32,000 nt of DNA from Cylindrospermopsis raciborskii Cr2010 (GCF_003367075.2 NZ_CP065936.1:3600001-3632000), one strand, 5' to 3'. Positions 2,627 through 27,045 are shown, counted from the stretch's first letter. The notes: generated by a model not told the origin, from the letters alone. A program made the numbers and translations.

Positions 2627-2663
2627 ATATTGCATTAGTTATTTTTCATCTGCTACAATCAAA
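2593..2663 (+). repeat. 71-bp direct repeat, copy 1 (3' end of methyltransferase plus 37 bp downstream)
   Basis: The sequence tgacgaaaccatactaaactggcccattcagtaaatattgcattagttatttttcatctgctacaatcaaa is identical at 3035-3105. Confidence 0.95.
2651..2659 (+). promoter_or_regulatory. duplicated copy of the extended -10 box, upstream of the small chimeric ORF
   Basis: Same TGcTACAAT, inside direct-repeat copy 1 and 89 bp before the ATG at 2748. Confidence 0.25.
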
Positions 2664-2747
2664 GTAATATAATAGACATCTCCGAAGCGATCGCTCTTCT
2701 GTTTAGTCTAAGTAGGTGGGTGGAATTAAATAAGAGATTTTATAATT

Positions 2748-3068
2748 ATGCAAATCACAATCAATATACCAGATAACTTAACAGATAAATTCCGGGATAA
2801 ATTAGGTCACTTATCCGAAAAGGTCATGAATAAATTAGCTTTAGAAGCTTTTTTAGAAGGATTGATTAATTTTAATGAATTTAGACAGATGTTAAGTTTT
2901 CAGGATGAAAATGCTTTCAAGGCTTTTTTATCAGCAAATTTCCCCCTACATTCTGGGGGGTTATTAAATTTAGCGGGGAGTTGTGCGGATATAGATTTTA
3001 CCATTGATGAAGAAGGGATTTATGATCATAAGAATGACGAAACCATACTAAACTGGCCCATTCAGTAA
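2748..3068 (+). CDS. small UPF0175/antitoxin-like protein with chimeric 3' end (orphan, no adjacent toxin)
   Basis: 106-aa ORF. The N-terminus MQITINIPDNL...LALEAFLEGLINFNEFRQMLSF resembles small cyanobacterial UPF0175/antitoxin-like proteins (memory-based). The last 10 aa, DETILNWPIQ plus stop, match the methyltransferase C-terminus. This is because they lie in the second copy of a 71-bp direct repeat. Confidence 0.5.
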   Translation: MQITINIPDNLTDKFRDKLGHLSEKVMNKLALEAFLEGLINFNEFRQMLSFQDENAFKAFLSANFPLHSGGLLNLAGSCADIDFTIDEEGIYDHKNDETILNWPIQ

Positions 3069-3105
3069 ATATTGCATTAGTTATTTTTCATCTGCTACAA
3101 TCAAA
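3035..3105 (+). repeat. 71-bp direct repeat, copy 2
   Basis: Identical to 2593-2663, offset by 442 bp. It supplies the last codons and stop of the 106-aa ORF. Confidence 0.95.
3093..3101 (+). promoter_or_regulatory. candidate extended -10 box TGcTACAAT upstream of the PLD-SNF2 gene
   Basis: TGnTAnAAT-type extended -10, located 57 bp before the ATG at 3158. It lies within the 12-mer atctgctacaat, which also occurs at 2648-2659 and 15285-15296. Confidence 0.3.
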
Positions 3106-3157
3106 CTAATTATTTCCCCAAACCGCACCTGTGATTTTTAGATATTTTTAACCTCAA

Positions 3158-6100
3158 ATGCTGGACACCTTTATCCAAGAACTGATCCGAAAACAGCGTC
3201 CTTACTACATCATCCAAGGTACACCCATAAAAGGGCTTGAGAATCAGTATTGGTTGGTTTTCAAACATCGTGATGCAGATAACCTGCTGCATAAAGTTGT
3301 TAAATTCTTAGGTGCTAGTAAAAAACAAACAACTTATAAACTATTAAGAATAGACCAAAAAGCTGCTAAGGTCTTTACATATACCCCCATCAAGCAAAAT
3401 GACTTACCCAGCACCAGCTTACTGAGAACATCCAAGCTCGATATTATTGAAAAATTCTTGGATGTGGAAAATGTCACTAAAGAAAAAGCCTTATTAACTG
3501 GTAGTTTCCGAGAAATCTCTGGTCGTCAGCGGCGCTTCAATCTGCCCAATGATTTGGATAAGTACCATCAATTCTTTAGTAAAGTATTAGAACGCAGTCA
3601 AATTTATCGTCGTTCCACAGCTTACTTTGATAGTGGTATTCTGAAATTATATGAGGAACCATTGGCTGCTATTATTCAAGCAGAAGGAAGAATTCGCTTG
3701 TTAGTGGACTGGCAAGGATTTACTAAAAAGTCCGATGTTCAAGAACTGGAAAAACTTCATGACTCTAATTATCGCACTCAGTTTATTCAACGCACCTTAC
3801 AAGAGTTTCTACGAAATTTAAAAGATAGAGAATTAGATCACACAGAAATATTAGCTGAGTTAGTCAGACTAGGATTTATGGTGATTAAACTAGTCAAAAT
3901 GGAATCAGAAAGGGCCATTTATCATAAAAAAACAGGTATTCTCAGCGACTCCCTGGGATATCATATTCAACATGATGGTTCGGACAACTTCACCCGCGCT
4001 GCTTATTCTCGAAATGCTGAAAGTATCACTTTTTTATATTCCTGGGATGAACTGGATACAGAAACCATATTAGAGAACATTCGTCAATTTGATAGGGAAT
4101 GGGAACGGGAAGATATAGCATTTGATATCAGTTTAGAATTCCTCCAAGAAGTATTAGCAGAAAAGGAACGTCGCAGTCAATTAAAAACACCAGTTATTGA
4201 TTCTATCACCCCTGACACCGTTCCCTCGGGAAAAACTACCAACGTTGAAATTACCGGTCAAAACCTAGATCGCGTAGAAGAAATCCAAATTGTTGATAAT
4301 GACCTGGTACAAGTTACCATTAATAGTAAAGAACCAGAGCGTATTTTCGGTCAAATTACTATAAACACAAACCATCCACCAACAGTTTTAAAAGAGTTTA
4401 AGGTAAGAACTACTGAACAAAGTTATGAAATAGCACCGAAAAAACCTCCGGTGGTCACTAATTCCCCAGAAATTCCTGAGTTTGCAGAAATTGAGGGATT
4501 TAAACGAGCAGTAGAAATGATTTTAGCGGGTAATCATGGCACACCTAGTGACTTTCTTTATTGGTTAGCACGGCAAAAACCCCAACAGTTTCAAGTAGAA
4601 CGCAGTGATTTATTAGATGAACTGTTAAATAATAGCACCCTCTTTGAACACCAAAAGTCAGGGGCCCAACATTGTTTAAGAGTGATGAAAAATTTTGGTG
4701 TAGCTGTGTGTGCAGATGCAGTAGGCTTAGGGAAAACCCGTTTAGCTGCTACTGTAGCCAGACTATATCGTCAACAAAATGCACAAGCTAAAATTGCTAT
4801 TATAGCTGCTAAAAAACTTCATCCCAACTGGGAACGGGAACTGGGAGAATTAGGATTATTTCAATCCCGTGATTACGAACCCTATAACAAAAACCTCATG
4901 AGTCGTAAAGGTGGTTTTATAGAAAACTTTGGTCGTTTTGGGGGACCAGACTTAGTAATTATTGATGAGGCCCACGAAGGTATTCGCAATTATAGAAACC
5001 GTATTCACAAAACTTGTTTAGAGATACAAGAACAAGATAGAAAAACTGGCAAGCAACGTCATTTTCTGCTTTTGACCGCCACTCCCTGGAATAATCGCCG
5101 AGAAGATATTTATAATATCCTTTCACCCTTTATTAGTCGTCCAGAAGGTTTTAATGATTTAAAATTCCCCCCAGAAGTAACCCACTGGTTTCAAAATCGC
5201 GAAAGTGGTGTAGAAAATTTTACGGACAATACGGAACTATTTCGCCGCACCTATCGGGAACTGTTTCTTCAACGGACTAGACAAATGCTACGAGAAGCTA
5301 CTCCGGATTTAAACTTGTATGCCAAACGGGTGGCGGAATGGTTACCAGTAAAATTTGAAGATGGTACTGAATTAGCGCTAAATCAAATTTTCACCCAGTT
5401 TGAAACTAGTTTATATATTCCTTTTGCTGACCCTATTCGTTATTTAACCAGTAATGTGGAACAACGTAGTTTGTTATCCAATCAGCGCCGCTTTTTCTTA
5501 CAAAGAGCTGAATCTAGTATGTATGCCTTGGGTAGAACTATTGGGAGTTTTGGTTACCGAATTGAACAAATGCAGAAACGTTTAGAATCAGTTTCTTCTG
5601 ATGCGGAGGGACTAAAGGAGTTTTTACTAGTCCACTATAATTTCAACTCCGATAGAAAAGATAACTCAGAAAAGTTCTTAGATCATTATTTAGATCATTA
5701 TGAAGATGAGGATTATGAAGAAGAGGAGGAAGAAGAGGAAAATGAAGCAAATCAAGAACAAAACCGTCAACAATTAAGACGTTCTATAGATACTCTCACA
5801 GGTAATCTACAGAATGATCCTGACAATGCCCAAAAAATTTATAATCGCATGCTAGATGATTGTGAAAAAGACCTACAACAATTGGATGAAATTCACGCCT
5901 TATTAAAGAATGAGTTTTTGGTTGATCACAAAAAACAACAAGTTACCCAAAAAGTTCGTGAGTTAGTGAAACTTGGTCATAAGGTACTACTAATTTCTAC
6001 CTTTAGCGATACTGTGATTGATTATTATCATTATATGACCCGCGACAGTGCGATCGCAGCTAAGGGTATTGGGATGTTAATTGGTTCCACAAAATTATAT

Positions 6101-7417
6101 TATCCGGACAATTCAGATAAACCACAAAGAGTAAGTCCTGCTTATGTAGTACAACCTAAACAAGGTCGAGTTGTTTCCAATCGCCAAAGTATCTTTAGAT
6201 TGTTTGCTCCACATGCTACCTGTAAAAGTCCTGAAGAGCTTCCCAAACCAGAAGAAGAAATTAGAGTATTAATTGGTTCAGAAACCTTATCGGTGGGTCA
6301 AAATTTGCAAGATGCGGATTATTTGATTAATATTGATTTGCCTTGGAATCCCATGATTTTAGAGCAAAGAATTGGCAGGATTGATAGACCGAAACAACAT
6401 AAGACGGAACATATTTATATTTATTATGCCAACAGCGAAAGTCAGCTACTGAGACAAGCATCTCGATTAACAAATTTACATAAAAAACTAGTAGGTGAAT
6501 TAGCTCAACTAGATGGGAAGATCACAAATATTGAAGACCATCCTCCTATTCCTACTATTTCCAGTGTTAATAAATTAGGATCTTCTATTTATGGTGATAC
6601 ATTATTTGATGATGAAATTTTACCAGGATATGTGGATTTCATCCAAAGTCTAATTAAAGCTAGAAAAATGGAACAAGGTAATTTACAGGAGGATGCTTAT
6701 AAAAAACAAGAAACCAATCGAGATGTTTATACCCAAAATGAAATATTACACAGTGAAGAGCTGAGTGAACTTTTAAAAAAAATGGGCGATGATTACCAAC
6801 CAAATCCCATTGCTCTAGGTCGAATCAATGAACCAAACCAACCAACCGGATTAGTAGCACTAATAGTGCGATATTTCGGACCCAATGGTGAACCTATAAA
6901 AAATAAACAAGAAACCCTATTTTGGAACAATATCACAAGAGAAAAAGATGGTTATGGTTTGGCGATCGCCACTGCTATCAAAACCCCAGCAGCTAACAAT
7001 GTGTTTTCTTCAAAATATTTAATATCATTAGCTGAATCAATTTATGACGAACTGGTGAAACTCAAGGAACAACGCAGTGCAGAACTAGAGGAACCAGAAA
7101 CCCTAGAAAATATTAATATTACTTCGGAACGGATTACCAAAATACAACGTCGTTTAAATAAGCTAGATAGGTTCCCAGGTAATTTAGACCGTGTTATGGT
7201 GAAAAGTACGCTGAAAAAACTGAATAGTTGGAAAGAGGGAAAATCTGTACAAAAACTTTTGAAGGAATATACAGATGGGGATAAATCAAATTTGGATGAT
7301 GAGAAATTTATTATTCAGTTGGTGGAAGATACGGATAGGTTAAACCTAATTTTGGATGAAGGAATTAAACCTACCAGTATGCAAATTTCCTTAACAGCAT
7401 TTTTATTAAGAGGTTGA
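3158..7417 (+). CDS. PLD-like nuclease / IPT-TIG-like / SNF2-family (SF2) helicase fusion protein
   Basis: 1419-aa ORF. N-terminal PLD/Nuc-like region: AYFDSGIL and a single HKD-like motif IYHKKTGILSD...GSDNFTRAAYSRNAES. IPT/TIG-like segment: ITPDTVPSGKTTNVEITGQNLDRVEEIQIV. SNF2/SF2 motifs: LFEHQKSG, ADAVGLGKT (I), LVIIDEAHEG (II, DEAH), LLLTATPWNN (III), and SVGQNLQDADYLINIDLPWNPMILEQRIGRIDRPKQ (V-VI). Acidic tract: YEDEDYEEEEEEEENE. Confidence 0.85.
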   Translation: MLDTFIQELIRKQRPYYIIQGTPIKGLENQYWLVFKHRDADNLLHKVVKFLGASKKQTTYKLLRIDQKAAKVFTYTPIKQNDLPSTSLLRTSKLDIIEKFLDVENVTKEKALLTGSFREISGRQRRFNLPNDLDKYHQFFSKVLERSQIYRRSTAYFDSGILKLYEEPLAAIIQAEGRIRLLVDWQGFTKKSDVQELEKLHDSNYRTQFIQRTLQEFLRNLKDRELDHTEILAELVRLGFMVIKLVKMESERAIYHKKTGILSDSLGYHIQHDGSDNFTRAAYSRNAESITFLYSWDELDTETILENIRQFDREWEREDIAFDISLEFLQEVLAEKERRSQLKTPVIDSITPDTVPSGKTTNVEITGQNLDRVEEIQIVDNDLVQVTINSKEPERIFGQITINTNHPPTVLKEFKVRTTEQSYEIAPKKPPVVTNSPEIPEFAEIEGFKRAVEMILAGNHGTPSDFLYWLARQKPQQFQVERSDLLDELLNNSTLFEHQKSGAQHCLRVMKNFGVAVCADAVGLGKTRLAATVARLYRQQNAQAKIAIIAAKKLHPNWERELGELGLFQSRDYEPYNKNLMSRKGGFIENFGRFGGPDLVIIDEAHEGIRNYRNRIHKTCLEIQEQDRKTGKQRHFLLLTATPWNNRREDIYNILSPFISRPEGFNDLKFPPEVTHWFQNRESGVENFTDNTELFRRTYRELFLQRTRQMLREATPDLNLYAKRVAEWLPVKFEDGTELALNQIFTQFETSLYIPFADPIRYLTSNVEQRSLLSNQRRFFLQRAESSMYALGRTIGSFGYRIEQMQKRLESVSSDAEGLKEFLLVHYNFNSDRKDNSEKFLDHYLDHYEDEDYEEEEEEEENEANQEQNRQQLRRSIDTLTGNLQNDPDNAQKIYNRMLDDCEKDLQQLDEIHALLKNEFLVDHKKQQVTQKVRELVKLGHKVLLISTFSDTVIDYYHYMTRDSAIAAKGIGMLIGSTKLYYPDNSDKPQRVSPAYVVQPKQGRVVSNRQSIFRLFAPHATCKSPEELPKPEEEIRVLIGSETLSVGQNLQDADYLINIDLPWNPMILEQRIGRIDRPKQHKTEHIYIYYANSESQLLRQASRLTNLHKKLVGELAQLDGKITNIEDHPPIPTISSVNKLGSSIYGDTLFDDEILPGYVDFIQSLIKARKMEQGNLQEDAYKKQETNRDVYTQNEILHSEELSELLKKMGDDYQPNPIALGRINEPNQPTGLVALIVRYFGPNGEPIKNKQETLFWNNITREKDGYGLAIATAIKTPAANNVFSSKYLISLAESIYDELVKLKEQRSAELEEPETLENINITSERITKIQRRLNKLDRFPGNLDRVMVKSTLKKLNSWKEGKSVQKLLKEYTDGDKSNLDDEKFIIQLVEDTDRLNLILDEGIKPTSMQISLTAFLLRG

Positions 7418-7544: not shown

Positions 7545-8261
7545 CTATGGTAACACTATATCAGCATAACTATATATCTCAATGCCTAGGGATTTCGCTA
7601 CCGGTATAGCTCGCTCATCCACCATGGGGGAAATCACAATTTTACGGTCAACCACTCTATTTTGACTTTTAGCGTAGAATTCCGCCTTGCGACCAAAAAC
7701 GTACATACCAGCTTTGTCAATAGAAGATTTAAGTTCACAGACAATAGTCAGTCCATTTTTGATAATTATATCCAATTCCACCTGCTCTGGGCGTCCAAAT
7801 ACTTCCCCCTCCTGGTCATAAAGGGTGAGATTGAGCACCTCCACTCCAAAGGACTGACCTAAAATAGCTTTCAGTCCATTACGGAAACTAGCTTCAGAAT
7901 AGAGACCCCAGCGGGAACCAATAGCACCAATGGCGCTTTCATAACGACGGTTAGCCTTCTGGATCTCCTCCAGGGTAGCACTGTTCTGGGCTTCGATTCT
8001 GTCAAGACGTTGAGTATTTTCCTCCCATTTGCGATTTTGCTCATCCCACTTACGAGCTTGCTCCTCCCTATCTCGCTGTAACTCATTCAAAACTCGGTCA
8101 AATTTTTCGTCGAACTCAGTCCGGGGGGTGTAATATTCTGACACCGTGCGCAAGACGAAATCCCGTACCCCTGGTTCTTCGGCGAGCTCCCGTAGGGAGT
8201 GCTTCGCAATCGCCCGGGGCAATTCTTTTTGGATTAATGCTTTAATTTCAGCCTCTATCAT
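7545..8261 (-). CDS. coiled-coil + PD-(D/E)XK-like nuclease-fold protein (DUF3782-like), array copy A (divergent edge copy)
   Basis: 238 aa, starting at the ATG (MIEAEIK) conserved in all copies. Module string: a (8028-8048). It has an extra KHSLRELA (24 bp), a C-terminus IEIYSYADIVLP, and several substitutions relative to B-G. The core SEASFRN / VELDIII / IVCELKSS fits the E-D-ExK arrangement of the restriction-endonuclease fold. Confidence 0.75.
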   Translation of the reverse strand: MIEAEIKALIQKELPRAIAKHSLRELAEEPGVRDFVLRTVSEYYTPRTEFDEKFDRVLNELQRDREEQARKWDEQNRKWEENTQRLDRIEAQNSATLEEIQKANRRYESAIGAIGSRWGLYSEASFRNGLKAILGQSFGVEVLNLTLYDQEGEVFGRPEQVELDIIIKNGLTIVCELKSSIDKAGMYVFGRKAEFYAKSQNRVVDRKIVISPMVDERAIPVAKSLGIEIYSYADIVLP

Positions 8262-8387
8262 AGGTTTTGGTATAGATGTTGAAATGCTCCCCTCAAATGG
8301 TAGGGATTCTGGTAACTAGTTTTTAGCTACTTACCCATATTATAACCTCTAATTTTAGGATCTTTGTAAACTCTACTAAGTAAAGAT

Positions 8388-8486
8388 GCACAATTGCAGG
8401 ATGGGTTAGCGGTAGGGTAACCCATGGGGGTGTTGGGTTCATACTTCAACCCAACCTAGCTTCATTTTATATTTAATTCCACTCAC
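8388..8486 (-). repeat. spacer double-hairpin dispersed-repeat element (copy in spacer A/B)
   Basis: The element runs gcacaattgcaggATGGGTTAgcggtagggTAACCCATgggggtGTTGGGTTcatacttcAACCCAACctagcttcat...aattccactcac. It contains two 8-bp stems. Confidence 0.8.
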
Positions 8487-8524
8487 ACACTTAATTCCTT
8501 AACAGAGTAGAGTGTGATTATAAG

Positions 8525-9292
8525 CTATGATACCACCATGTCAGCGTAACTATATGTCTCAATACCTAGGGATTTCGCTACCGGTATAGCCCGTTCATCC
8601 ACCATGGGGGAAATCACAATTTTACGGTCAACCACTCTATTTTGATTTTTAGCGTAGAATTCCGCCTTGCGACCAAAAACGTACATACCAGCTTTGTCAA
8701 TGGAAGATTTAAGTTCACAGACAATAGTCAGTCCATTTTTGATAATTATATCCAATTCCACCTGCTCTGGGCGTCCAAATACTTCCCCCTCCTGGTCATA
8801 AAGGGTAAGATTGAGCACCTCCACCCCGAAGGACTGACCTAAAATAGCTTTCAGTCCATTACGGAAACTAGCTTCAGAATAGAGACCCCAGCGGGAACCA
8901 ATAGCACCAATGGCGCTTTCATAACGACGGTTAGCCTTCTGGATTTCCTCTAGAGTAGCACTATTCTGAGCTTCGATTCTGTCAAGACGTTGAGTATTTT
9001 CCTCCCATTTGCGATTTTGCTCATCCCATTTACGATTTTGCTCATCCCACTTCTGAGCTTGCTCAGCTTGAAAAGCATCGAATTTACGATTTTGCTCATC
9101 CCACTTACGAGCTTGCTCCTCCCTGTCTCGCTGTAACTCATTCAAAACTCGGTCAAATTTTTCGTCGAACTCAGTCCGGGGGGTGTAATATTCTGACACC
9201 GTGCGCAAGACGAAATCCCGTACCCCCGGTTCTTCGGCAATCGCCCTGGGCAATTCTTTTTGGATTAATGCTTTAATTTCAGCCTCTATCAT
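8525..9292 (-). CDS. coiled-coil + PD-(D/E)XK-like nuclease-fold protein, array copy B
   Basis: Start taken at the conserved ATG at 9292; the ORF track extends to a TTG at 9328. Module string abaa (9008-9103). Asn variant (AKNQNR). Confidence 0.75.
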   Translation of the reverse strand: MIEAEIKALIQKELPRAIAEEPGVRDFVLRTVSEYYTPRTEFDEKFDRVLNELQRDREEQARKWDEQNRKFDAFQAEQAQKWDEQNRKWDEQNRKWEENTQRLDRIEAQNSATLEEIQKANRRYESAIGAIGSRWGLYSEASFRNGLKAILGQSFGVEVLNLTLYDQEGEVFGRPEQVELDIIIKNGLTIVCELKSSIDKAGMYVFGRKAEFYAKNQNRVVDRKIVISPMVDERAIPVAKSLGIETYSYADMVVS

Positions 9293-9370
9293 AGGTTTTG
9301 GGTATAGATGTTGAAATGCTCCCCTCAAATGGTAGGGATTCTGGTAACTAGTTTTTAGCTACTTACCCAT

Positions 9371-9376
9371 ATTATA
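9371..9376 (-). promoter_or_regulatory. perfect TATAAT (minus strand) about 79 bp upstream of each array gene start (representative, copy B)
   Basis: The same hexamer sits at the same offset in every spacer: 8339-8344, 9371-9376, 10457-10462, 11468-11473, 12641-12646, 13694-13699 and 14801-14806. The only -35-like TTTACA lies 20 nt upstream, which is suboptimal spacing. TATAAT is not rare in AT-rich DNA. Confidence 0.3.
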
Positions 9377-9419
9377 ACCTCTAATTTTAGGATCTTTGTA
9401 AACTCTACTAAGTAAAGAT

Positions 9420-9518
9420 GCACAATTGCAGGATGGGTTAGCGGTAGGGTAACCCATGGGGGTGTTGGGTTCATACTTCAACCCAACCTAGCTTCATTTT
9501 ATATTTAATTCCACTCAC
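9420..9518 (-). repeat. spacer double-hairpin element (spacer B/C)
   Basis: Same element. Hairpin 1 lies at 9433-9457 and hairpin 2 at 9464-9487. Confidence 0.8.
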
Positions 9519-9556
9519 ACACTTAATTCCTTAACAGAGTAGAGTGTGATTATAAG

Positions 9557-10378
9557 CTATGATACCACCATGTCAGCGTAACTATATGTCTCAATACCTA
9601 GGGATTTCGCTACCGGTATAGCCCGTTCATCCACCATGGGGGAAATCACAATTTTACGGTCAACCACTCTATTTTGACTTTTAGCGTAGAATTCCGCCTT
9701 GCGACCAAAAACGTACATACCAGCTTTGTCAATGGAAGATTTAAGTTCACAGACAATAGTCAGTCCATTTTTGATAATTATATCCAATTCCACCTGCTCT
9801 GGGCGTCCAAATACTTCCCCCTCCTGGTCATAAAGGGTAAGATTGAGCACCTCCACCCCGAAGGACTGACCTAAAATAGCTTTCAGTCCATTACGGAAAC
9901 TAGCTTCAGAATAGAGACCCCAGCGGGAACCAATAGCACCAATGGCGCTTTCATAACGACGGTTAGCCTTCTGGATTTCCTCTAGAGTAGCACTATTCTG
10001 AGCTTCGATTCTGTCAAGACGTTGAGTATTTTCCTCCCATTTGCGATTTTGCTCATCCCATTTACGATTTTGCTCATCCCACTTCTGAGCTTGCTCAGCT
10101 TGAAAAGCATCGAATTTGCGATTTTGCTCATCCCACTTCTGAGCTTGCTCAGCTTGAAAAGCATCGAATTTACGATTTTGCTCATCCCACTTACGAGCTT
10201 GCTCCTCCCTGTCTCGCTGTAACTCATTCAAAACTCGGTCAAATTTTTCGTCGAACTCAGTCCGGGGGGTGTAATATTCTGACACCGTGCGCAAGACGAA
10301 ATCCCGTACCCCCGGTTCTTCGGCAATCGCCCTGGGCAATTCTTTTTGGATTAATGCTTTAATTTCAGCCTCTATCAT
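9557..10378 (-). CDS. coiled-coil + PD-(D/E)XK-like nuclease-fold protein, array copy C
   Basis: Conserved ATG at 10378 (track: TTG at 10414). Module string ababaa (10040-10189). Ser variant (AKSQNR). Confidence 0.75.
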   Translation of the reverse strand: MIEAEIKALIQKELPRAIAEEPGVRDFVLRTVSEYYTPRTEFDEKFDRVLNELQRDREEQARKWDEQNRKFDAFQAEQAQKWDEQNRKFDAFQAEQAQKWDEQNRKWDEQNRKWEENTQRLDRIEAQNSATLEEIQKANRRYESAIGAIGSRWGLYSEASFRNGLKAILGQSFGVEVLNLTLYDQEGEVFGRPEQVELDIIIKNGLTIVCELKSSIDKAGMYVFGRKAEFYAKSQNRVVDRKIVISPMVDERAIPVAKSLGIETYSYADMVVS

Positions 10379-10505
10379 AGGTTTTGGGTATAGATGTTGA
10401 AATGCTCCCCTCAAATGGTAGGGATTCTGGTAACTAGTTTTTAGCTACTTACCCATATTATAACCTCTAATTTTAGGATCTTTGTAAACTCTACTAAGTA
10501 AAGAT

Positions 10506-10604
10506 GCACAATTGCAGGATGGGTTAGCGGTAGGGTAACCCATGGGGGTGTTGGGTTCATACTTCAACCCAACCTAGCTTCATTTTATATTTAATTCCAC
10601 TCAC
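10506..10604 (-). repeat. spacer double-hairpin element (spacer C/D)
   Basis: Same element at the same offset (137 to 39 bp below the next stop codon). Confidence 0.8.
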
Positions 10605-10642
10605 ACACTTAATTCCTTAACAGAGTAGAGTGTGATTATAAG

Positions 10643-11389
10643 CTATGATACCACCATGTCAGCGTAACTATATGTCTCAATACCTAGGGATTTCGCTACC
10701 GGTATAGCCCGTTCATCCACCATGGGGGAAATCACAATTTTACGGTCAACCACTCTATTTTGATTTTTAGCGTAGAATTCCGCCTTGCGACCAAAAACGT
10801 ACATACCAGCTTTGTCAATGGAAGATTTAAGTTCACAGACAATAGTCAGTCCATTTTTGATAATTATATCCAATTCCACCTGCTCTGGGCGTCCAAATAC
10901 TTCCCCCTCCTGGTCATAAAGGGTAAGATTGAGCACCTCCACCCCGAAGGACTGACCTAAAATAGCTTTCAGTCCATTACGGAAACTAGCTTCAGAATAG
11001 AGACCCCAGCGGGAACCAATAGCACCAATGGCGCTTTCATAACGACGGTTAGCCTTCTGGATTTCCTCTAGAGTAGCACTATTCTGAGCTTCGATTCTGT
11101 CAAGACGTTGAGTATTTTCCTCCCATTTGCGATTTTGCTCATCCCACTTCTGAGCTTGCTCAGCTTGAAAAGCATCGAATTTACGATTTTGCTCATCCCA
11201 CTTACGAGCTTGCTCCTCCCTGTCTCGCTGTAACTCATTCAAAACTCGGTCAAATTTTTCGTCGAACTCAGTCCGGGGGGTGTAATATTCTGACACCGTG
11301 CGCAAGACGAAATCCCGTACCCCCGGTTCTTCGGCAATCGCCCTGGGCAATTCTTTTTGGATTAATGCTTTAATTTCAGCCTCTATCAT
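10643..11389 (-). CDS. coiled-coil + PD-(D/E)XK-like nuclease-fold protein, array copy D
   Basis: Conserved ATG at 11389 (track: GTG-extended to 11455). Module string aba (11126-11200). This is the base unit of 1011 bp. Asn variant. Confidence 0.75.
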   Translation of the reverse strand: MIEAEIKALIQKELPRAIAEEPGVRDFVLRTVSEYYTPRTEFDEKFDRVLNELQRDREEQARKWDEQNRKFDAFQAEQAQKWDEQNRKWEENTQRLDRIEAQNSATLEEIQKANRRYESAIGAIGSRWGLYSEASFRNGLKAILGQSFGVEVLNLTLYDQEGEVFGRPEQVELDIIIKNGLTIVCELKSSIDKAGMYVFGRKAEFYAKNQNRVVDRKIVISPMVDERAIPVAKSLGIETYSYADMVVS

Positions 11390-11516
11390 AGGTTTTGGGT
11401 ATAGATGTTGAAATGCTCCCCTCAAATGGTAGGGATTCTGGTAACTAGTTTTCACCTACTTACCCATATTATAACCTCTAATTTTAGGATCTTTGTAAAC
11501 TCTACTAAGTAAAGAT

Positions 11517-11615
11517 GCACAATTGCAGGATGGGTTAGCGGTAGGTTAACCCATGGGGGTGTTGGGTTCATACTTCAACCCAACCTAGCTTCATTTTATA
11601 TTTAATTCCACTCAC
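11517..11615 (-). repeat. spacer double-hairpin element (spacer D/E)
   Basis: Same element, with loop variant ggtaggttaaccc. Confidence 0.8.
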
Positions 11616-11653
11616 ACACTTAATTCCTTAACAGAGTAGAGTGTGATTATAAG

Positions 11654-12562
11654 CTATGATACCACCATGTCAGCGTAACTATATGTCTCAATACCTAGGG
11701 ATTTCGCTACCGGTATAGCCCGTTCATCCACCATGGGGGAAATCACAATTTTACGGTCAACCACTCTATTTTGATTTTTAGCGTAGAATTCCGCCTTGCG
11801 ACCAAAAACGTACATACCAGCTTTGTCAATGGAAGATTTAAGTTCACAGACAATAGTCAGTCCATTTTTGATAATTATATCCAATTCCACCTGCTCTGGG
11901 CGTCCAAATACTTCCCCCTCCTGGTCATAAAGGGTAAGATTGAGCACCTCCACCCCGAAGGACTGACCTAAAATAGCTTTCAGTCCATTACGGAAACTAG
12001 CTTCAGAATAGAGACCCCAGCGGGAACCAATAGCACCAATGGCGCTTTCATAACGACGGTTAGCCTTCTGGATTTCCTCTAGAGTAGCACTATTCTGAGC
12101 TTCGATTCTGTCAAGACGTTGAGTATTTTCCTCCCATTTGCGATTTTGCTCATCCCACTTCTGAGCTTGCTCAGCTTGAAAAGCATCGAATTTGCGATTT
12201 TGCTCATCCCACTTCTGAGCTTGCTCAGCTTGAAAAGCATCGAATTTGCGATTTTGCTCATCCCACTTACGAGCTTGCTCAGCTTGAAAAGCATCGAATT
12301 TGTGATTTTGCTCATCCCACTTCTGAGCTTGCTCAGCCTGAAAAGCATCGAATTTACGATTTTGCTCATCCCACTTACGAGCTTGCTCCTCCCTGTCTCG
12401 CTGTAACTCATTCAAAACTCGGTCAAATTTTTCGTCGAACTCAGTCCGGGGGGTGTAATATTCTGACACCGTGCGCAAGACGAAATCCCGTACCCCCGGT
12501 TCTTCGGCAATCGCCCTGGGCAATTCTTTTTGGATTAATGCTTTAATTTCAGCCTCTATCAT
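11654..12562 (-). CDS. coiled-coil + PD-(D/E)XK-like nuclease-fold protein, array copy E (longest)
   Basis: Conserved ATG at 12562 (track: GTG-extended to 12628). Module string ababababa (12137-12373), with one WDEQNHK and one ...AEQARK variant. Asn variant. Confidence 0.75.
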   Translation of the reverse strand: MIEAEIKALIQKELPRAIAEEPGVRDFVLRTVSEYYTPRTEFDEKFDRVLNELQRDREEQARKWDEQNRKFDAFQAEQAQKWDEQNHKFDAFQAEQARKWDEQNRKFDAFQAEQAQKWDEQNRKFDAFQAEQAQKWDEQNRKWEENTQRLDRIEAQNSATLEEIQKANRRYESAIGAIGSRWGLYSEASFRNGLKAILGQSFGVEVLNLTLYDQEGEVFGRPEQVELDIIIKNGLTIVCELKSSIDKAGMYVFGRKAEFYAKNQNRVVDRKIVISPMVDERAIPVAKSLGIETYSYADMVVS

Positions 12563-12689
12563 AGGTTTTGGGTATAGATGTTGAAATGCTCCCCTCAAAT
12601 GGTAGGGATTCTGGTAACTAGTTTTCACCTACTTACCCATATTATAACCTCTAATTTTAGGATCTTTGTAAACTCTACTAAGTAAAGAT

Positions 12690-12788
12690 GCACAATTGCA
12701 GGATGGGTTAGCGGTAGGTTAACCCATGGGGGTGTTGGGTTCATACTTCAACCCAACCTAGCTTCATTTTATATTTAATTCCACTCAC
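12690..12788 (-). repeat. spacer double-hairpin element (spacer E/F)
   Basis: Same element, with loop variant ggtaggttaaccc. Confidence 0.8.
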
Positions 12789-12826
12789 ACACTTAATTCC
12801 TTAACAGAGTAGAGTGTGATTATAAG

Positions 12827-13615
12827 CTATGATACCACCATGTCAGCGTAACTATATGTCTCAATACCTAGGGATTTCGCTACCGGTATAGCCCGTTCAT
12901 CCACCATGGGGGAAATCACAATTTTACGGTCAACCACTCTATTTTGACTTTTAGCGTAGAATTCCGCCTTGCGACCAAAAACGTACATACCAGCTTTGTC
13001 AATGGAAGATTTAAGTTCACAGACAATAGTCAGTCCATTTTTGATAATTATATCCAATTCCACCTGCTCTGGGCGTCCAAATACTTCCCCCTCCTGGTCA
13101 TAAAGGGTAAGATTGAGCACCTCCACCCCGAAGGACTGACCTAAAATAGCTTTCAGTCCATTACGGAAACTAGCTTCAGAATAGAGACCCCAGCGGGAAC
13201 CAATAGCACCAATGGCGCTTTCATAACGACGGTTAGCCTTCTGGATTTCCTCTAGAGTAGCACTATTCTGAGCTTCGATTCTGTCAAGACGTTGAGTATT
13301 TTCCTCCCATTTGCGATTTTGCTCATCCCATTTACGATTTTGCTCATCCCATTTACGATTTTGCTCATCCCACTTCTGAGCTTGCTCAGCCTGAAAAGCA
13401 TCGAATTTACGATTTTGCTCATCCCACTTACGAGCTTGCTCCTCCCTGTCTCGCTGTAACTCATTCAAAACTCGGTCAAATTTTTCGTCGAACTCAGTCC
13501 GGGGGGTGTAATATTCTGACACCGTGCGCAAGACGAAATCCCGTACCCCCGGTTCTTCGGCAATCGCCCTGGGCAATTCTTTTTGGATTAATGCTTTAAT
13601 TTCAGCCTCTATCAT
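12827..13615 (-). CDS. coiled-coil + PD-(D/E)XK-like nuclease-fold protein, array copy F
   Basis: Conserved ATG at 13615 (track: GTG-extended to 13681). Module string abaaa (13310-13426). Ser variant. Confidence 0.75.
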   Translation of the reverse strand: MIEAEIKALIQKELPRAIAEEPGVRDFVLRTVSEYYTPRTEFDEKFDRVLNELQRDREEQARKWDEQNRKFDAFQAEQAQKWDEQNRKWDEQNRKWDEQNRKWEENTQRLDRIEAQNSATLEEIQKANRRYESAIGAIGSRWGLYSEASFRNGLKAILGQSFGVEVLNLTLYDQEGEVFGRPEQVELDIIIKNGLTIVCELKSSIDKAGMYVFGRKAEFYAKSQNRVVDRKIVISPMVDERAIPVAKSLGIETYSYADMVVS

Positions 13616-13742
13616 AGGTTTTGGGTATAGATGTTGAAATGCTCCCCTCAAATGGTAGGGATTCTGGTAACTAGTTTTCACCTACTTACCCATATTATAA
13701 CCTCTAATTTTAGGATCTTTGTAAACTCTACTAAGTAAAGAT

Positions 13743-13841
13743 GCACAATTGCAGGATGGGTTAGCGGTAGGTTAACCCATGGGGGTGTTGGGTTCATACT
13801 TCAACCCAACCTAGCTTCATTTTATATTTAATTCCACTCAC
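13743..13841 (-). repeat. spacer double-hairpin element (spacer F/G)
   Basis: Same element, with loop variant ggtaggttaaccc. Confidence 0.8.
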
Positions 13842-13879
13842 ACACTTAATTCCTTAACAGAGTAGAGTGTGATTATAAG

Positions 13880-14722
13880 CTATGATACCACCATGTCAGC
13901 GTAACTATATGTCTCAATACCTAGGGATTTCGCTACCGGTATAGCCCGTTCATCCACCATGGGGGAAATCACAATTTTACGGTCAACCACTCTATTTTGA
14001 TTTTTAGCGTAGAATTCCGCCTTGCGACCAAAAACGTACATACCAGCTTTGTCAATGGAAGATTTAAGTTCACAGACAATAGTCAGTCCATTTTTGATAA
14101 TTATATCCAATTCCACCTGCTCTGGGCGTCCAAATACTTCCCCCTCCTGGTCATAAAGGGTAAGATTGAGCACCTCCACCCCGAAGGACTGACCTAAAAT
14201 AGCTTTCAGTCCATTACGGAAACTAGCTTCAGAATAGAGACCCCAGCGGGAACCAATAGCACCAATGGCGCTTTCATAACGACGGTTAGCCTTCTGGATT
14301 TCCTCTAGAGTAGCACTATTCTGAGCTTCGATTCTGTCAAGACGTTGAGTATTTTCCTCCCATTTGCGATTTTGCTCATCCCATTTACGATTTTGCTCAT
14401 CCCATTTACGATTTTGCTCATCCCACTTCTGAGCTTGCTCAGCTTGAAAAGCATCGAATTTGCGATTTTGCTCATCCCATTTACGATTTTGCTCAGCTTG
14501 AAAAGCATCGAATTTACGATTTTGCTCATCCCACTTACGAGCTTGCTCCTCCCTGTCTCGCTGTAACTCATTCAAAACTCGGTCAAATTTTTCGTCGAAC
14601 TCAGTCCGGGGGGTGTAATATTCTGACACCGTGCGCAAGACGAAATCCCGTACCCCCGGTTCTTCGGCAATCGCCCTGGGCAATTCTTTTTGGATTAATG
14701 CTTTAATTTCAGCCTCTATCAT
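13880..14722 (-). CDS. coiled-coil + PD-(D/E)XK-like nuclease-fold protein, array copy G
   Basis: Conserved ATG at 14722 (track: TTG at 14758). Module string ababaaa (14363-14533); the first b reads FDAFQAEQNRK. Asn variant. Confidence 0.75.
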   Translation of the reverse strand: MIEAEIKALIQKELPRAIAEEPGVRDFVLRTVSEYYTPRTEFDEKFDRVLNELQRDREEQARKWDEQNRKFDAFQAEQNRKWDEQNRKFDAFQAEQAQKWDEQNRKWDEQNRKWDEQNRKWEENTQRLDRIEAQNSATLEEIQKANRRYESAIGAIGSRWGLYSEASFRNGLKAILGQSFGVEVLNLTLYDQEGEVFGRPEQVELDIIIKNGLTIVCELKSSIDKAGMYVFGRKAEFYAKNQNRVVDRKIVISPMVDERAIPVAKSLGIETYSYADMVVS

Positions 14723-14849
14723 AGGTTTTGGGTATAGATGTTGAAATGCTCCCCTCAAATGGTAGGGATTCTGGTAACTAGTTTTTAGCTACTTACCCAT
14801 ATTATAACCTCTAATTTTAGGATCTTTGTAAACTCTACTAAGTAAAGAT

Positions 14850-14985: not shown

Positions 14986-15225
14986 CTATGATACCACTAT
15001 ATGAGCGTAACTATATGTCTCAATGCCTAGGGATTTCGCTACCGGTATAGCTCGTTCGTCCACCATGGGGGAAATCACAATTTTACGGTCAACCACTCTA
15101 TTACGATTTTGCTCAGCTTGAAAAGCATCGAGTTTGCGATTTTTCTCATCCCATTTACGAGCTTGCTCTTCCCTATCTCGCTGTAACTCATTCAAAACTC
15201 GGTCAAATTTTTCGTCGAACTCAGT
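14986..15225 (-). pseudogene. remnant array copy H (5'-truncated, internal deletion of the nuclease-like core)
   Basis: The 3' end (…NRVVDRKIVISPMVDERAIPVAKSLGIETYSYAHIVVS) is fused at ~15102 directly to the module region (…ARKWDEKNRKLDAFQAEQNR). Homology to intact copies stops at 15225, within the TEFDEKF region. There is no conserved start. Confidence 0.85.
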
Positions 15226-15287
15226 AATGTGCAATAGCTAGGTATAGAAAAGGTAAGCGATGCGATCGCCACTTAGGAAGCTAAATC

Positions 15288-15989: not shown

Positions 15990-16141
15990 AAATACTTAAA
16001 ATTAAGTAGTATTTCTTAGAAAAGAATAGAAAAATAATAAGGAAATAATAAATTTTTCCTTACAAATGATCACCCTGCATTAAATTGGTAATTGCTTCAA
16101 CAAAAACCACAATAAATTACAATAATTCCAGGAGAATCAAC

Positions 16142-16651
16142 ATGAATTTATCCCGTGGACGCAGGATATTGGCCAGCTTGCTACTGTGCATTTTACTGTT
16201 GACAACAGCTTGCGCAGCCAAAGCACCTAGTCGTTTTGATGCGGTACAACAAGAAAGTACAAAGCAAAAAAGTGGTCAAGCAGTTTCTAAAAACGCCACC
16301 CAGGGTAGTAAATTAAATGCTTTCTTTCCTAAAAGTGAAGATGGCTACAGTCGAGTTTATACCCAGGAGAAAAAGGGGTTCTCGGAGGCTAATTTGAAAA
16401 AAGATGGTAAAGTGATAGCACAGTTAGCCATTTCTGACACCACTAGCACTCCTGGAACGGCGTCAAAATATGCCAATAGCACCAAAACAATAGATGGTTA
16501 TCCAGCAGTGGAACTGGGTAAAACCCAAACCTCTGTTTTGGTAGGTAAGTACCAAGTAAAAGTGATTTCTAAAGACCCATTATTTAACGCCAGTGAGAGA
16601 GAAGATTGGATTGAAAAATTTGATCTTGATGGTTTATCCAAGTTGAAATAA
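16142..16651 (+). CDS. putative lipoprotein, unknown function
   Basis: The internal ATG at 16142 is preceded by an aggag RBS. The signal peptide MNLSRGRRILASLLLCILLLTTAC has a lipobox-like LTTAC. The ORF track starts earlier, at 16085. Confidence 0.65.
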   Translation: MNLSRGRRILASLLLCILLLTTACAAKAPSRFDAVQQESTKQKSGQAVSKNATQGSKLNAFFPKSEDGYSRVYTQEKKGFSEANLKKDGKVIAQLAISDTTSTPGTASKYANSTKTIDGYPAVELGKTQTSVLVGKYQVKVISKDPLFNASEREDWIEKFDLDGLSKLK

Positions 16652-16751: not shown

Positions 16752-17639
16752 GTGAGCAAGCCAATTTTTGAACTAGTTGATGAGTTACCTACCAGTGGTT
16801 TAACTGTTTCTTTGTTGAACGCTTTGGACTTTGTTGCTCCTGGTGAATGGCAAAATACAGTGGGGTTTGTCAATACAATTAAAACTGTTACTGGTGAAAC
16901 TGACGAAGATTTAATTCAAGCCATTGGTGAACGGGCGGTTTACCTTTTTAATGATAAATCTCAAGGTTATCAAACTGCCTTATGGTTGTATCAAACCGTA
17001 GATGGCACTGATAAAGCTTTGGGTGCAGCAGCTTTGGCAAATAAGGTTGGTGAAACCATACCCCTACTTGGTTTCTTAAACTCTATCACCCCCAAACCCG
17101 ATAAAGCCCAAACTATTGACCTCACCTTAAAAATTGTGGTAGAATTAGTGGCTTTTTGTCAAATTAATGGCATTCCCGGTGATAGTATTGGCGATTTTGT
17201 AGCCGCTTTGGGGGAATATGCTGGTGAATCACTAATTAGGATGGTAGCATTAATCTGTGTGGATGGTATTCTCCCCCTCGGTCCTGATTTTGTGCAAAAA
17301 TCATTGGCCTTCCTCAGTAGTATGAATCCCCAGGAATTGGACCAAAATTCTACTTTTAAAAGCATCAAGGATGCAATCCCCGGAAATGGTATCGGGGGAA
17401 AAATAGACTTTATTGGTCAAAGTCTGGACTCTGTTCAGGGTTGGATGAATGGAATAGTTTCTGCTAATGCCTTAACTGCTCAAAAAGTCCTGAATAACAT
17501 CAGTGGTTTTCTTGATTTTGCTGATGATAAATTAGACTATGTAGCAGCCTTTTTAGATGTGTCCACCAACTATTATGAACACACGGGAACTCAAACTCTA
17601 GCTCGTCGCTTGATTGAACGGGCTGTAGCTGAAATATAA
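16752..17639 (+). CDS. hypothetical protein
   Basis: 295-aa ORF with a GTG start preceded by aggag. No motif recognised. Confidence 0.6.
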   Translation: MSKPIFELVDELPTSGLTVSLLNALDFVAPGEWQNTVGFVNTIKTVTGETDEDLIQAIGERAVYLFNDKSQGYQTALWLYQTVDGTDKALGAAALANKVGETIPLLGFLNSITPKPDKAQTIDLTLKIVVELVAFCQINGIPGDSIGDFVAALGEYAGESLIRMVALICVDGILPLGPDFVQKSLAFLSSMNPQELDQNSTFKSIKDAIPGNGIGGKIDFIGQSLDSVQGWMNGIVSANALTAQKVLNNISGFLDFADDKLDYVAAFLDVSTNYYEHTGTQTLARRLIERAVAEI

Positions 17640-25812: not shown

Positions 25813-27045
25813 ATGTTAAACAAAGTACGTAATCTTTTTAGCAAGTTTTTTAATAATACTAGCACGCTTAATCGAGAACCATTAAATAAGGCCAGCTTGA
25901 TAGTTATTATCATAATAGACGTTTTTATTCTAATTAATGTATTTACAGGATTGGATAGTATTGGTAGATGGCATCTTACTCCTGACGAAACTTATCCCTG
26001 TCATAATGAATGGAAGGGTTATCAAGAGCAAACCTCAGCAACTAAAGATTATGAAATAATTACTAATTCATTAGTAGAAAATAATCAGCCCAACTTTAAC
26101 GCAAAATATAAACAGCAAGAACAAGGAAGATTAGGGAAAGTGTCAGAAATATGCCTGAACTATGGCCTATTAAAAGACAATTTAAATACCGTTCAAAATC
26201 GGCAATTTTTACAAAGTATTGGTCAGACCCAAAAAAAAATCAATAAGTTGGGGCAAGAAAATGCCGAAATTCGTAGACAATACGATTCCACCCTTCTGGA
26301 AAAAATGGTTCGTCAACCTGATAGCAAGTCCATCAACCAAGTAGAAGCTGATAAAGCTAGGCAAAAACTAGATAGTAATACGAGGCAAATTGCCCAATTT
26401 AAAGAGGAAAATAAAAAGAGAAAAAATCAGCTACTCAACCGACCAGCAAGTGGCAAATTTCTCTCGTTTTTGCAGGATAAAATTCAATTTTCTAACTTAG
26501 TTAATGGCTATAAAACAGCCTCATTTTGGTATCCCAGCATTCAAGTAACCCTGCAAGCTATATTCCTATTACCTTTAATTTTCATCGCTTCATTCATTTA
26601 TGGTAGGTCACAACGCCAAGGGTATGGACTAGTATCTCTAATTAGCTGGCATTTACTAGTTATATTTGTGATTCCCCTAGTTATCAAAGTCTTGGAATTT
26701 CTGCAAGTTGGCGTAGTATTTAAATTCTTAGTAGATATTATTAGTAGCTTATTGGGGGGGTTACTATTCTTAGTTAGCTATGTTTATATTGTAGTGATTC
26801 CCCTAGTCGGGTTTGGGATTATTAAGTTGTTGCAAAGGAATGTAGTTTTTAATAGTAAAATTCAAGCTGGTAAAAGAGTACAGAACTCCCAGTGCATCAA
26901 CTGTGGAAGAAACCTTAGGTCTCGTGAGGCCCATTGTCCCCATTGTGGTTATTACCAGTATGTGGAATGTCACCATTGCCATAACTTGACTTATAAGAAG
27001 TTACCCTATTGTTATCATTGTGGTACTGAGCAAATTTCTCTATGA
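25813..27045 (+). CDS. multi-pass membrane protein with central coiled-coil and C-terminal double zinc-ribbon
   Basis: 410 aa. It has hydrophobic helices at the N-terminus and at aa ~240-340. The C-terminus CINCGRNLRSREAHCPHCG...CHHCHNLTYKKLPYCYHCG carries four CxxC pairs. Its stop overlaps the next start (ATGA at 27042-27045). Confidence 0.6.
   Translation: MLNKVRNLFSKFFNNTSTLNREPLNKASLIVIIIIDVFILINVFTGLDSIGRWHLTPDETYPCHNEWKGYQEQTSATKDYEIITNSLVENNQPNFNAKYKQQEQGRLGKVSEICLNYGLLKDNLNTVQNRQFLQSIGQTQKKINKLGQENAEIRRQYDSTLLEKMVRQPDSKSINQVEADKARQKLDSNTRQIAQFKEENKKRKNQLLNRPASGKFLSFLQDKIQFSNLVNGYKTASFWYPSIQVTLQAIFLLPLIFIASFIYGRSQRQGYGLVSLISWHLLVIFVIPLVIKVLEFLQVGVVFKFLVDIISSLLGGLLFLVSYVYIVVIPLVGFGIIKLLQRNVVFNSKIQAGKRVQNSQCINCGRNLRSREAHCPHCGYYQYVECHHCHNLTYKKLPYCYHCGTEQISL

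Follow-up and report, generated by a model that had tools for sequence, protein, structure and literature searches.

Nested in-frame repeats in a tandem array of predicted nuclease genes of Cylindrospermopsis raciborskii

Why does a cyanobacterium carry, side by side, a row of almost identical genes whose products differ mainly in the length of one internal segment? The question is raised by a 32,000-nucleotide stretch of Cylindrospermopsis (Raphidiopsis) raciborskii DNA (NZ_CP065936.1:3600001-3632000; called the window throughout, with positions counted from its first letter), in which seven open reading frames (ORFs) lie head to tail on the minus strand at 7545-14758. Their products are 100% identical to C. 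raciborskii proteins assigned to the PD-(D/E)XK nuclease family or to DUF3782. Between the flanks ...DREEQARK and WEENTQRLD, each copy carries a different string of two modules, a (WDEQNRK; 7 residues, 21 bp) and b (FDAFQAEQAQK; 11 residues, 33 bp). The locus is a fast-evolving nested tandem repeat, in which the differences in length are probably a by-product of repeat instability within a length-tolerant stalk and not a selected series.

Seven gene copies and the grammar of their modules

The stop-codon ends of the ORFs are at 7545, 8525, 9557, 10643, 11654, 12827 and 13880. Alignment and public annotation concur on an ATG start codon (MIEAEIK...), giving an ATG-to-stop extent of 7545-14722 and products of 238, 255, 273, 248, 302, 262 and 280 aa for copies A to G. 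The terminal copy A (7545-8261) has a single module a at 8028-8048 (7 aa), copy B (8525-9292) has abaa at 9008-9103 (32 aa), copy C (9557-10378) has ababaa at 10040-10189 (50 aa) and copy D (10643-11389) has aba at 11126-11200 (25 aa). The string of copy E (11654-12562) is ababababa, or (ab)4 a1, at 12137-12373 (79 aa), that of copy F (12827-13615) is abaaa, or (ab)1 a3, at 13310-13426 (39 aa), and that of copy G (13880-14722) is a b* a b a a a, or (ab)2 a3, at 14363-14533 (57 aa). An earlier sequence-only reading of this DNA had proposed these seven distinct strings and totals, and the ORF translations reproduce them. The exact identity of three modules has to be amended: copy E contains two point-variant modules, WDEQNHK and FDAFQAEQARK, and the first b of copy G (b*) is a hybrid with the head of b and the tail of a, FDAFQAEQNRK. 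Similarly, the DNA patterns put forward for the modules are exact for 23 of the 24 a-type and 7 of the 11 b-type modules, all within 8028-14533, the other five being point variants.

A common grammar governs the strings. We compared the window with five complete sister genomes retrieved by exact-protein look-up (Cr2010, G7, JBPFSD01, CP073250 and LYXA01), and all 59 intact units from the six fit (ab)^m a^n, with m = 0-4 and n = 1-4, the added length per unit being 18m + 7n residues. Module a stands at both ends of every string, and no bb junction occurs in the 59 units. The single grammar means that the variable region consists of two adjacent minisatellites, one of 54 bp (a+b, 18 aa) and then one of 21 bp (a). 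Tandem Repeats Finder, suggested earlier as a check, returns periods of 21 and 54 bp at the module sites, with up to 4.7 copies and 94-97% matches. At the DNA level, module a is TGGGAT followed by GAGCAAAATCG(T/C)AAA, module b is TTCGATGCTTTTCAAGCT followed by GAGCAAGCTCAGAAG, and the left flank of the module region ends in GAGCAAGCTCGTAAG. The two modules and the left flank have a common EQ..K tail (GAGCAA...AA(A/G)) and thereby supply homology for misalignment; the hybrid in copy G reads as the footprint of an exchange within this tail.

Stop-to-stop periods along the array are 980, 1032, 1086, 1011, 1173 and 1053 bp, and the offsets relative to copy D that had been calculated from module counts (+21, +75, +162 and +42 bp) are recovered from them. 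The same arithmetic had left a single base pair over at each end. For copy G the spacer upstream is indeed 1 bp short, and copy A can be fitted only by allowing for an insertion of 24 bp and the loss of 1 bp from the spacer. With the modules set aside and the ~264-bp spacer included, the units are ~99-100% identical, the outlier being terminal copy A. This copy differs from the internal copies at ~22 of the 633 non-module coding nucleotides, has a diverged 3' end (..ADIVLP) and is the only one with the insertion, which is in frame (KHSLRELA) and lies in the N-terminal head (8178-8201, minus strand). KHSLRELA is also found in Cr2010 and in a C. curvispora protein (P0047), and is missing from the terminal copies of G7, JBPFSD01, CP073250 and LYXA01.

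The six near-identical spacers on the minus strand measure 264 bp each (9293-9556, 10379-10642, 11390-11653, 12563-12826 and 13616-13879), or 263 bp upstream of copy A (8262-8524). A promoter-like CTGACA-16-TATAAT motif (11 of 12 matches; minus strand, 8517-8544, 9549-9576, 10635-10662, 11646-11673, 12819-12846 and 13872-13899) straddles the stops of copies B-G, with its -35 element inside the last codons (ADMVVS) and its -10 element just past the stop. Judged by this match to consensus, each unit may carry the promoter of the next gene. Copy A has another C-terminus and a weaker promoter-like motif. The spacers contain short hairpins, and an RNA element within them is unsupported, as they fold no better than shuffled sequence (z-score -1.25) and have no Rfam match; the whole window is empty in Rfam at gathering thresholds and in a tRNA scan.

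Inheritance of the strings and exchange between copies

In all five sister genomes the array occupies one and the same locus, with a small methyltransferase gene on one side and the gene for a 1419-aa SNF2 helicase on the other, and the flanks are 99.3-99.98% identical to those of the window. Copy E itself has no exact protein match in the collection searched, so the window's own assembly is not among its genomes. The number of copies is 7 in the window, 8 in Cr2010, 12 in G7, 12 in JBPFSD01, 11 in CP073250 and 11 in LYXA01. The whole ~1-kb gene unit is thus a variable-number repeat as well (7-12 copies among strains), a level missing from the sequence-only reading. With upper-case letters for point-variant modules, the window array reads aBabaaa, abaaa, abABababa, aba, ababaa, abaa, a. 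The array of Cr2010 follows the window's order with an extra ababaaa after abaaa and with abaA in place of abaa. Six of the seven strings are identical between the two, in the same order, the seventh has the same number and type of modules with one amino-acid change, and the difference in copy number is one whole unit. As an origin of that extra unit we rejected a simple crossover hybrid with E on its left and F on its right, since the string fits but the C-terminal single-nucleotide polymorphism (SNP) block does not. The 12 units of G7 are abaBaba, abaaa, abaBabAba, aba, abaaaa, ababa, ababa, ababaaa, abaa, aaa, ababaa and a; JBPFSD01 matches them except for unit 6, which is aba instead of ababa, a difference of one 'ba'. 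CP073250 has 10 intact units and one frameshifted, and LYXA01 has 10 intact and one truncated. A total of 21 distinct strings were found in 48 C. raciborskii-like protein clusters.

These comparisons show that the module strings are heritable, and that module number and whole-unit number both vary among very close isolates. A comparison of module counts between isolates had been proposed as a check, and differences are seen in one copy each between G7 and JBPFSD01 (ababa versus aba) and between G7 and CP073250 (aaa versus aa). Identical counts on re-sequencing had been named as the sign of assembly noise; instead, the sister assemblies repeat the same distinct strings in the same order, and because these assemblies are independent the differences between strings are not assembly noise. 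All lengths are distinct in the window (7/7) and among the intact units of CP073250 (10/10), and 11 of 12 are in G7, where two adjacent ababa copies are the only adjacent identical strings in the 59 units. LYXA01 has three lengths twice each. That each copy is distinct therefore holds for the window and not as a rule.

Of the 60 full-length units in the six genomes, 59 are intact, so the frequent frameshifts that would have spoken against selection on protein length are not seen. The sole exception is the first array copy of CP073250 (L007 3449-4304), in which a C6 run at codons 37-39, beyond the module region, has one C too many. A sequencing error in the homopolymer could account for this, and the corrected string, abaBaba, is that of the first copy of G7. 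The description of the locus as a protein-length variable-number tandem repeat with no on/off switch is borne out by the same count and by the unit sizes of 21, 33 and 54 bp, with which repeat number shifts neither the frame nor a promoter spacing, as it would in phase variation. We do not retain the accompanying claim that the changes had been filtered for an intact frame. Repeat units that are all multiples of three keep the frame automatically, with no frame selection invoked, and the pattern is uninformative on selection.

Outside the modules the copies evolve in concert. The 633-nt non-module coding part has 52 variable sites among the 59 units, and these fall into few haplotype blocks, e.g. 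GATAT, CGCTG and ..CTG around positions 300-315 and others near the 3' end. The blocks are spread mosaically over copies and strains and are common to non-orthologous copies. Between positional orthologues of the window and Cr2010, the strings are kept while up to 7 sites differ, always as blocks found in other paralogues. Such mosaic blocks, as read from the alignment, bear the signature of gene conversion between paralogues. The six internal copies of the window (8525-14722) differ from one another at no more than 1 of 633 nt, whereas their positional orthologues in Cr2010 (L006 7841-15145) differ at up to 13, in paralogue-shared blocks; the near-identity in the window reflects either recent gene conversion or repeat-blind read polishing. 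Synonymous changes account for 39 of the variable sites and non-synonymous changes for 13, which indicates that the non-module parts of the copies are under purifying selection.

The predicted product and a probable origin of its lengths

Copy D matches DUF3782 (PF12644) over residues 84-168 (1.6e-25; 89.5 bits against a gathering cut-off of 24.4) and PDDEXK_10 (PF07788) over residues 169-238 (9.5e-21; 74 bits against a gathering cut-off of 21.2). DUF3782 has been described as the coiled-coil stalks of prokaryotic PD-(D/E)XK endonucleases (PMC4786415), and DUF1626 as Hjc/Hje-like with a coiled coil at the N-terminus (PMC1913061). Among 38 homologues that are 62-85% identical to copy D, the N-terminal ~63 and C-terminal ~150 residues are highly conserved, length varies only between them, and E133, D174, E186 and K188 (E...D...ExK) are invariant. 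AlphaFold2 models give the expected alpha/beta nuclease core and an N-terminal helical head of ~60 aa. The long helix runs from residue 39 to residue 114 in D and to residue 168 in E, the extra 54 residues being the exact module difference, and the predicted local distance difference test score (pLDDT) is >90 across the modules of copy E. Searching the PDB with a sequence profile yielded spurious coiled-coil matches only (E >= 0.1). The top solved structures found by Foldseek for the C-terminal domain were AF1548 (1y88, E = 9.5e-4), NucS/EndoMS (5gkj and 2vld, ~2e-3) and VC1899. From the models we infer a stand-alone PD-(D/E)XK nuclease, of predicted activity, that consists of a two-helix head, a long helix and a NucS/Hjc-like domain. 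No NCBIfam family matches it, and its only match among defence models is the PADLOC candidate cluster PDLC01085 'C3a181' (5.3e-18).

The modules continue a regular helical register. With W64 at position a, the register is unbroken from L50 to I124, with L, R, W, F, W, W, L, N, I, Y and I at the a positions; the d positions hold Q or N within the modules and L, F or I in the flanks. One heptad makes up module a, and module b adds a four-residue stutter to a heptad (a hendecad); the two together make 18 residues, or five turns. The W or F of the modules occupies core position a. The long helix, modelled in monomers, is probably a coiled-coil stalk of a putative oligomer.

This module logic is a trait of the family and not a local accident, as the same spacings recur far outside the array. 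A family scan with one genome per species gave 416 loci, mostly cyanobacterial, with others in Competibacter, Chromatiaceae, Methylococcaceae, Anaerolineae and Desulfobacterales. Stalks could be parsed in 71 proteins from GTDB genomes; they are 42-179 aa long with 1-19 tryptophans, and successive tryptophans are 7 residues apart 231 times, 18 residues apart 34 times and 11 residues apart 14 times. More than one copy within 10 kb was found at only 8 of the 78 loci whose neighbours were analysed. Large arrays look specific to Cylindrospermopsis/Raphidiopsis, though draft assemblies, among them that of R. brookii D9, are interrupted precisely at this gene (loci L009 and L013). Neighbouring paralogues found elsewhere have unequal stalk lengths at 5 of 5 evaluable loci: 42/81/78 aa in Chromatiaceae (L070 433-3011), 99/74 in Lamprocystis (L065 7744-10723), 67/124 in Prochloron (L024 281-2001), 81/42 in an uncultured cyanobacterium (L018 10001-13380) and 74/49 in R. 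brookii. The gammaproteobacterial adjacent paralogues use another second module, of the EQRLNWDEQNRK type. No conserved partner emerged when ORFs within 4 kb of the 78 loci were clustered, as no cluster was present at more than 16 loci; the top clusters consisted of short ORFs, some of which probably overlap this gene, or, by eye, of abundant cyanobacterial nuclease-like families. A mobile-element origin was rejected, since tblastn against phage and plasmid collections gave no homologue and PHROGs gave a marginal match only (1.5e-3).

The array probably arose by repeat instability at two levels. At the outer level, the ~1-kb unit of promoter-like motif, 264-bp spacer and gene is repeated head to tail 7-12 times, and unequal homologous recombination together with gene conversion between units would change the copy number and homogenise the domains. 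At the inner level, the 54-bp and then the 21-bp in-frame minisatellites would change in number by slippage or misaligned recombination, for which the tails common to a, b and the flank would supply the homology. Gain or loss of a, b or ab would alter the helix by ~1.0, 1.6 or 2.7 nm and leave its register undisturbed; each change, being in frame and in helical register, would be tolerated. Length heterology may further block conversion through the modules, in which case the strings would persist while the flanking SNPs are reshuffled.

In place of such a by-product, the lengths could be a selected series of graded 'molecular rulers' that hold the nuclease domain at seven distances from the head (~1 to 12 nm of extra helix). 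Such a series could place cuts at varying distances from a recognised feature, keep paralogues from forming mixed oligomers or allow escape from inhibitors, and selection would keep the lengths unequal. Several observations agree with this, namely the distinct lengths in the window, G7 and CP073250, the strings that stay fixed while conversion reshuffles the SNP blocks beside them, the unequal stalks of adjacent paralogues in unrelated lineages, the promoter-like motif of each unit, the purifying selection on all copies and the rarity of adjacent identical strings. We regard the selected series as unlikely, given the repeated lengths in LYXA01 and the ababa pair of G7, the common ancestry of the six arrays, which reduces them to one or two independent observations, and a head in which no DNA-recognition domain was identified; moreover, a block to conversion by length heterology would explain the persistence of strings without selection. 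A draw from the pooled 59 units gives P = 0.127 for 7 copies, which is non-significant and biased by the orthologues in the pool; as the pool consists of orthologous arrays, we discarded this test of 'all distinct' as evidence either way. The fuller version, in which 7-12 co-expressed versions of the nuclease act as a ruler set at graded distances from a common head (steps of ~1.0, 1.6 or 2.7 nm over a span of ~11 nm), with new lengths supplied by the nested repeat and all else kept uniform by gene conversion, is a doubtful proposition. If true, the ruler set would be a diversity-generating design for a nuclease of intracellular conflict or repair, recurring in cyanobacteria and purple sulfur bacteria.

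Frequent size variation within a culture, as at contingency loci of the Mycoplasma Vlp kind, would make the assembly one snapshot. The perfect 21- and 54-bp repeats, in up to 4.7 copies, the differences between near-identical strains and the wealth of strings among the protein clusters fit such variation. It is improbable given how well the strings are kept: the window and Cr2010 retain module number and order in their seven shared units despite 1-15 flank substitutions per 4 kb, and of the 12 units in G7 and JBPFSD01 only 1 is different. Classical contingency loci are far less stable, and the comparison of the window with Cr2010 argues for moderate rates of variation; the product also has no signal peptide or surface feature, as an antigenic role would need. 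That the module differences are noise from a collapsed or mis-resolved repeat is hardly credible. Units ~99-100% identical over ~1 kb are hard to assemble, as the broken drafts illustrate, but five independent complete genomes have the same kind of array, Cr2010 repeats the seven units of the window in order, and 59 of 59 intact units are in frame under one grammar. The by-product reading faces difficulties of its own. Most unequal crossovers would fall outside the modules and should duplicate a string, so a single pair of adjacent identical strings in 59 units is not obviously explained by neutral change. The modules have one hydrophobic residue per heptad, Q/N at d and i/i+4 acid-base (D/E to R/K) pairs, and judged by this composition the module region could be a single stable alpha-helix instead of a coiled coil. 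Part of the near-perfect agreement among the window's internal copies could stem from read polishing. Finally, the defence context is weak, as no neighbour is conserved over the 78 loci and the candidate cluster matched in PADLOC is unvalidated.

Known systems and neighbouring genes

The protein family and in-frame repeat variation are each of a known kind. As is predicted for the array proteins, bacterial and archaeal members of DUF3782/PDDEXK_10 (formerly DUF1626, COG5493) have an N-terminal coiled-coil or helical region followed by an Hjc/NucS-like core (PMC1913061, PMC4786415); these, the two papers on the family's architecture in the literature searched, mention neither variable-number heptad/hendecad modules nor tandem arrays. 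Crenarchaeal members of the family carry nonad beta-layers, which this bacterial branch is without (PMC4786415). In structure, the C-terminal domain comes closest to NucS/EndoMS, AF1548 and Hjc-type nucleases, at a sequence identity of only 13-19%, and NucS has an N-terminal DNA-binding beta-domain where the array protein has a helical stalk; mismatch- or junction-specific activity cannot be inferred from this likeness. The closest precedent for a ruler is the type I specificity subunit HsdS, in which two TAEL repeats in EcoR124I and three in EcoR124II, within the central coiled coil, alter the recognition sequence. There, too, a short in-frame repeat in a helical spacer changes a distance in an enzyme that acts on DNA. 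The HsdS spacer lies between two target-recognition domains (TRDs), whereas the array stalk lies between a ~60-aa helical head and the nuclease, and the array proteins have no TRD or Methylase_S match in a Pfam scan. The array repeats are 7 and 11 aa long and their variants coexist as paralogues, while the HsdS variants are alleles.

The Vlp lipoproteins of Mycoplasma hyorhinis are size-variable paralogues with in-frame repeats and on/off promoter switches. In Plasmodium vivax, MSP3 is encoded by a head-to-tail cluster of coiled-coil genes (PMC3662707). Both resemble the array as clusters of paralogues that differ mainly in the number of in-frame repeats, with a heptad coiled-coil centre whose length varies among paralogues and isolates; both are surface antigens under immune selection, unlike the array product, a cytoplasmic nuclease without a signal peptide. 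Read directly, the N-terminus of the copies, MIEAEIKALIQKELPRAIAEEPG, has no hydrophobic signal segment or lipobox, and the C-terminus is the nuclease domain. The array also differs from Vlp in that no on/off element was found and in that its paralogues are almost identical outside the repeats. What appears to be undescribed in the literature searched is an array of 7-12 cytoplasmic nuclease genes that are identical apart from their individual heptad/hendecad strings and that vary between strains at two nested levels. In-frame repeat variation is familiar in surface proteins and not in a cytoplasmic nuclease kept as such an array. The locus offers a natural experiment in concerted evolution, where conversion homogenises the domains and the stalk strings stay individual, and a ready-made series of lengths (7 to 79 extra residues) for studying the function of the DUF3782/PDDEXK_10 stalk. 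It is also a high-resolution strain marker for a bloom-forming, toxin-producing cyanobacterium, and a region that short-read assemblies will collapse.

A defence-type gene trio adjoins the array on the plus strand (134-7417), convergent with it. Its first member is a methyltransferase with a Type ISP C-terminal specificity domain, with an ORF from 134 that ends at 2626 and a length of 1073 aa in the sister strains; we considered a disruption of this gene and rejected it, as the frame is open from base 2 and the gene continues past the window's left end. It is followed by a small UPF0175-like protein (2748-3068, plus strand, 106 aa) and a PLD + TIG + SNF2 helicase (3158-7417, plus strand, 1419 aa) whose N-terminus matches PADLOC PbeA (1.7e-35). 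The trio's scores fall far short of the NCBIfam cut-offs for phospholipD_antiphage, DpdE and DrmD, and the three genes may represent either a Type ISP-like system in split form or a new system. The window contains no cas genes and no CRISPR array. A role of the nuclease in genetic conflict is plausible, given its Type ISP-like and PLD-SNF2 neighbours and the match to a PADLOC candidate.

Housekeeping genes lie on the array's other side (SSB, PmbA/TldD, ThiO-ThiG and LeuA). Two conserved ORFs stand beside the array on the plus strand (16085-16651, 188 aa; 16752-17639, 295 aa) and have no Pfam or PHROG match, and the only domain in a plus-strand ORF of 410 aa at 25813-27045 is a double zinc ribbon at the C-terminus. 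A dead copy, the copy-0 remnant (14986-15234, minus strand), lies at the array's upstream edge; it is 5' truncated near codon 39, and within it an internal deletion fuses module b to QNRNRVV; its LYXA01 counterpart has the 5' truncation only (181 aa). Directly on the upstream border of the array, at 15256-15270, is a HIP1-like GGCGATCGC palindrome.

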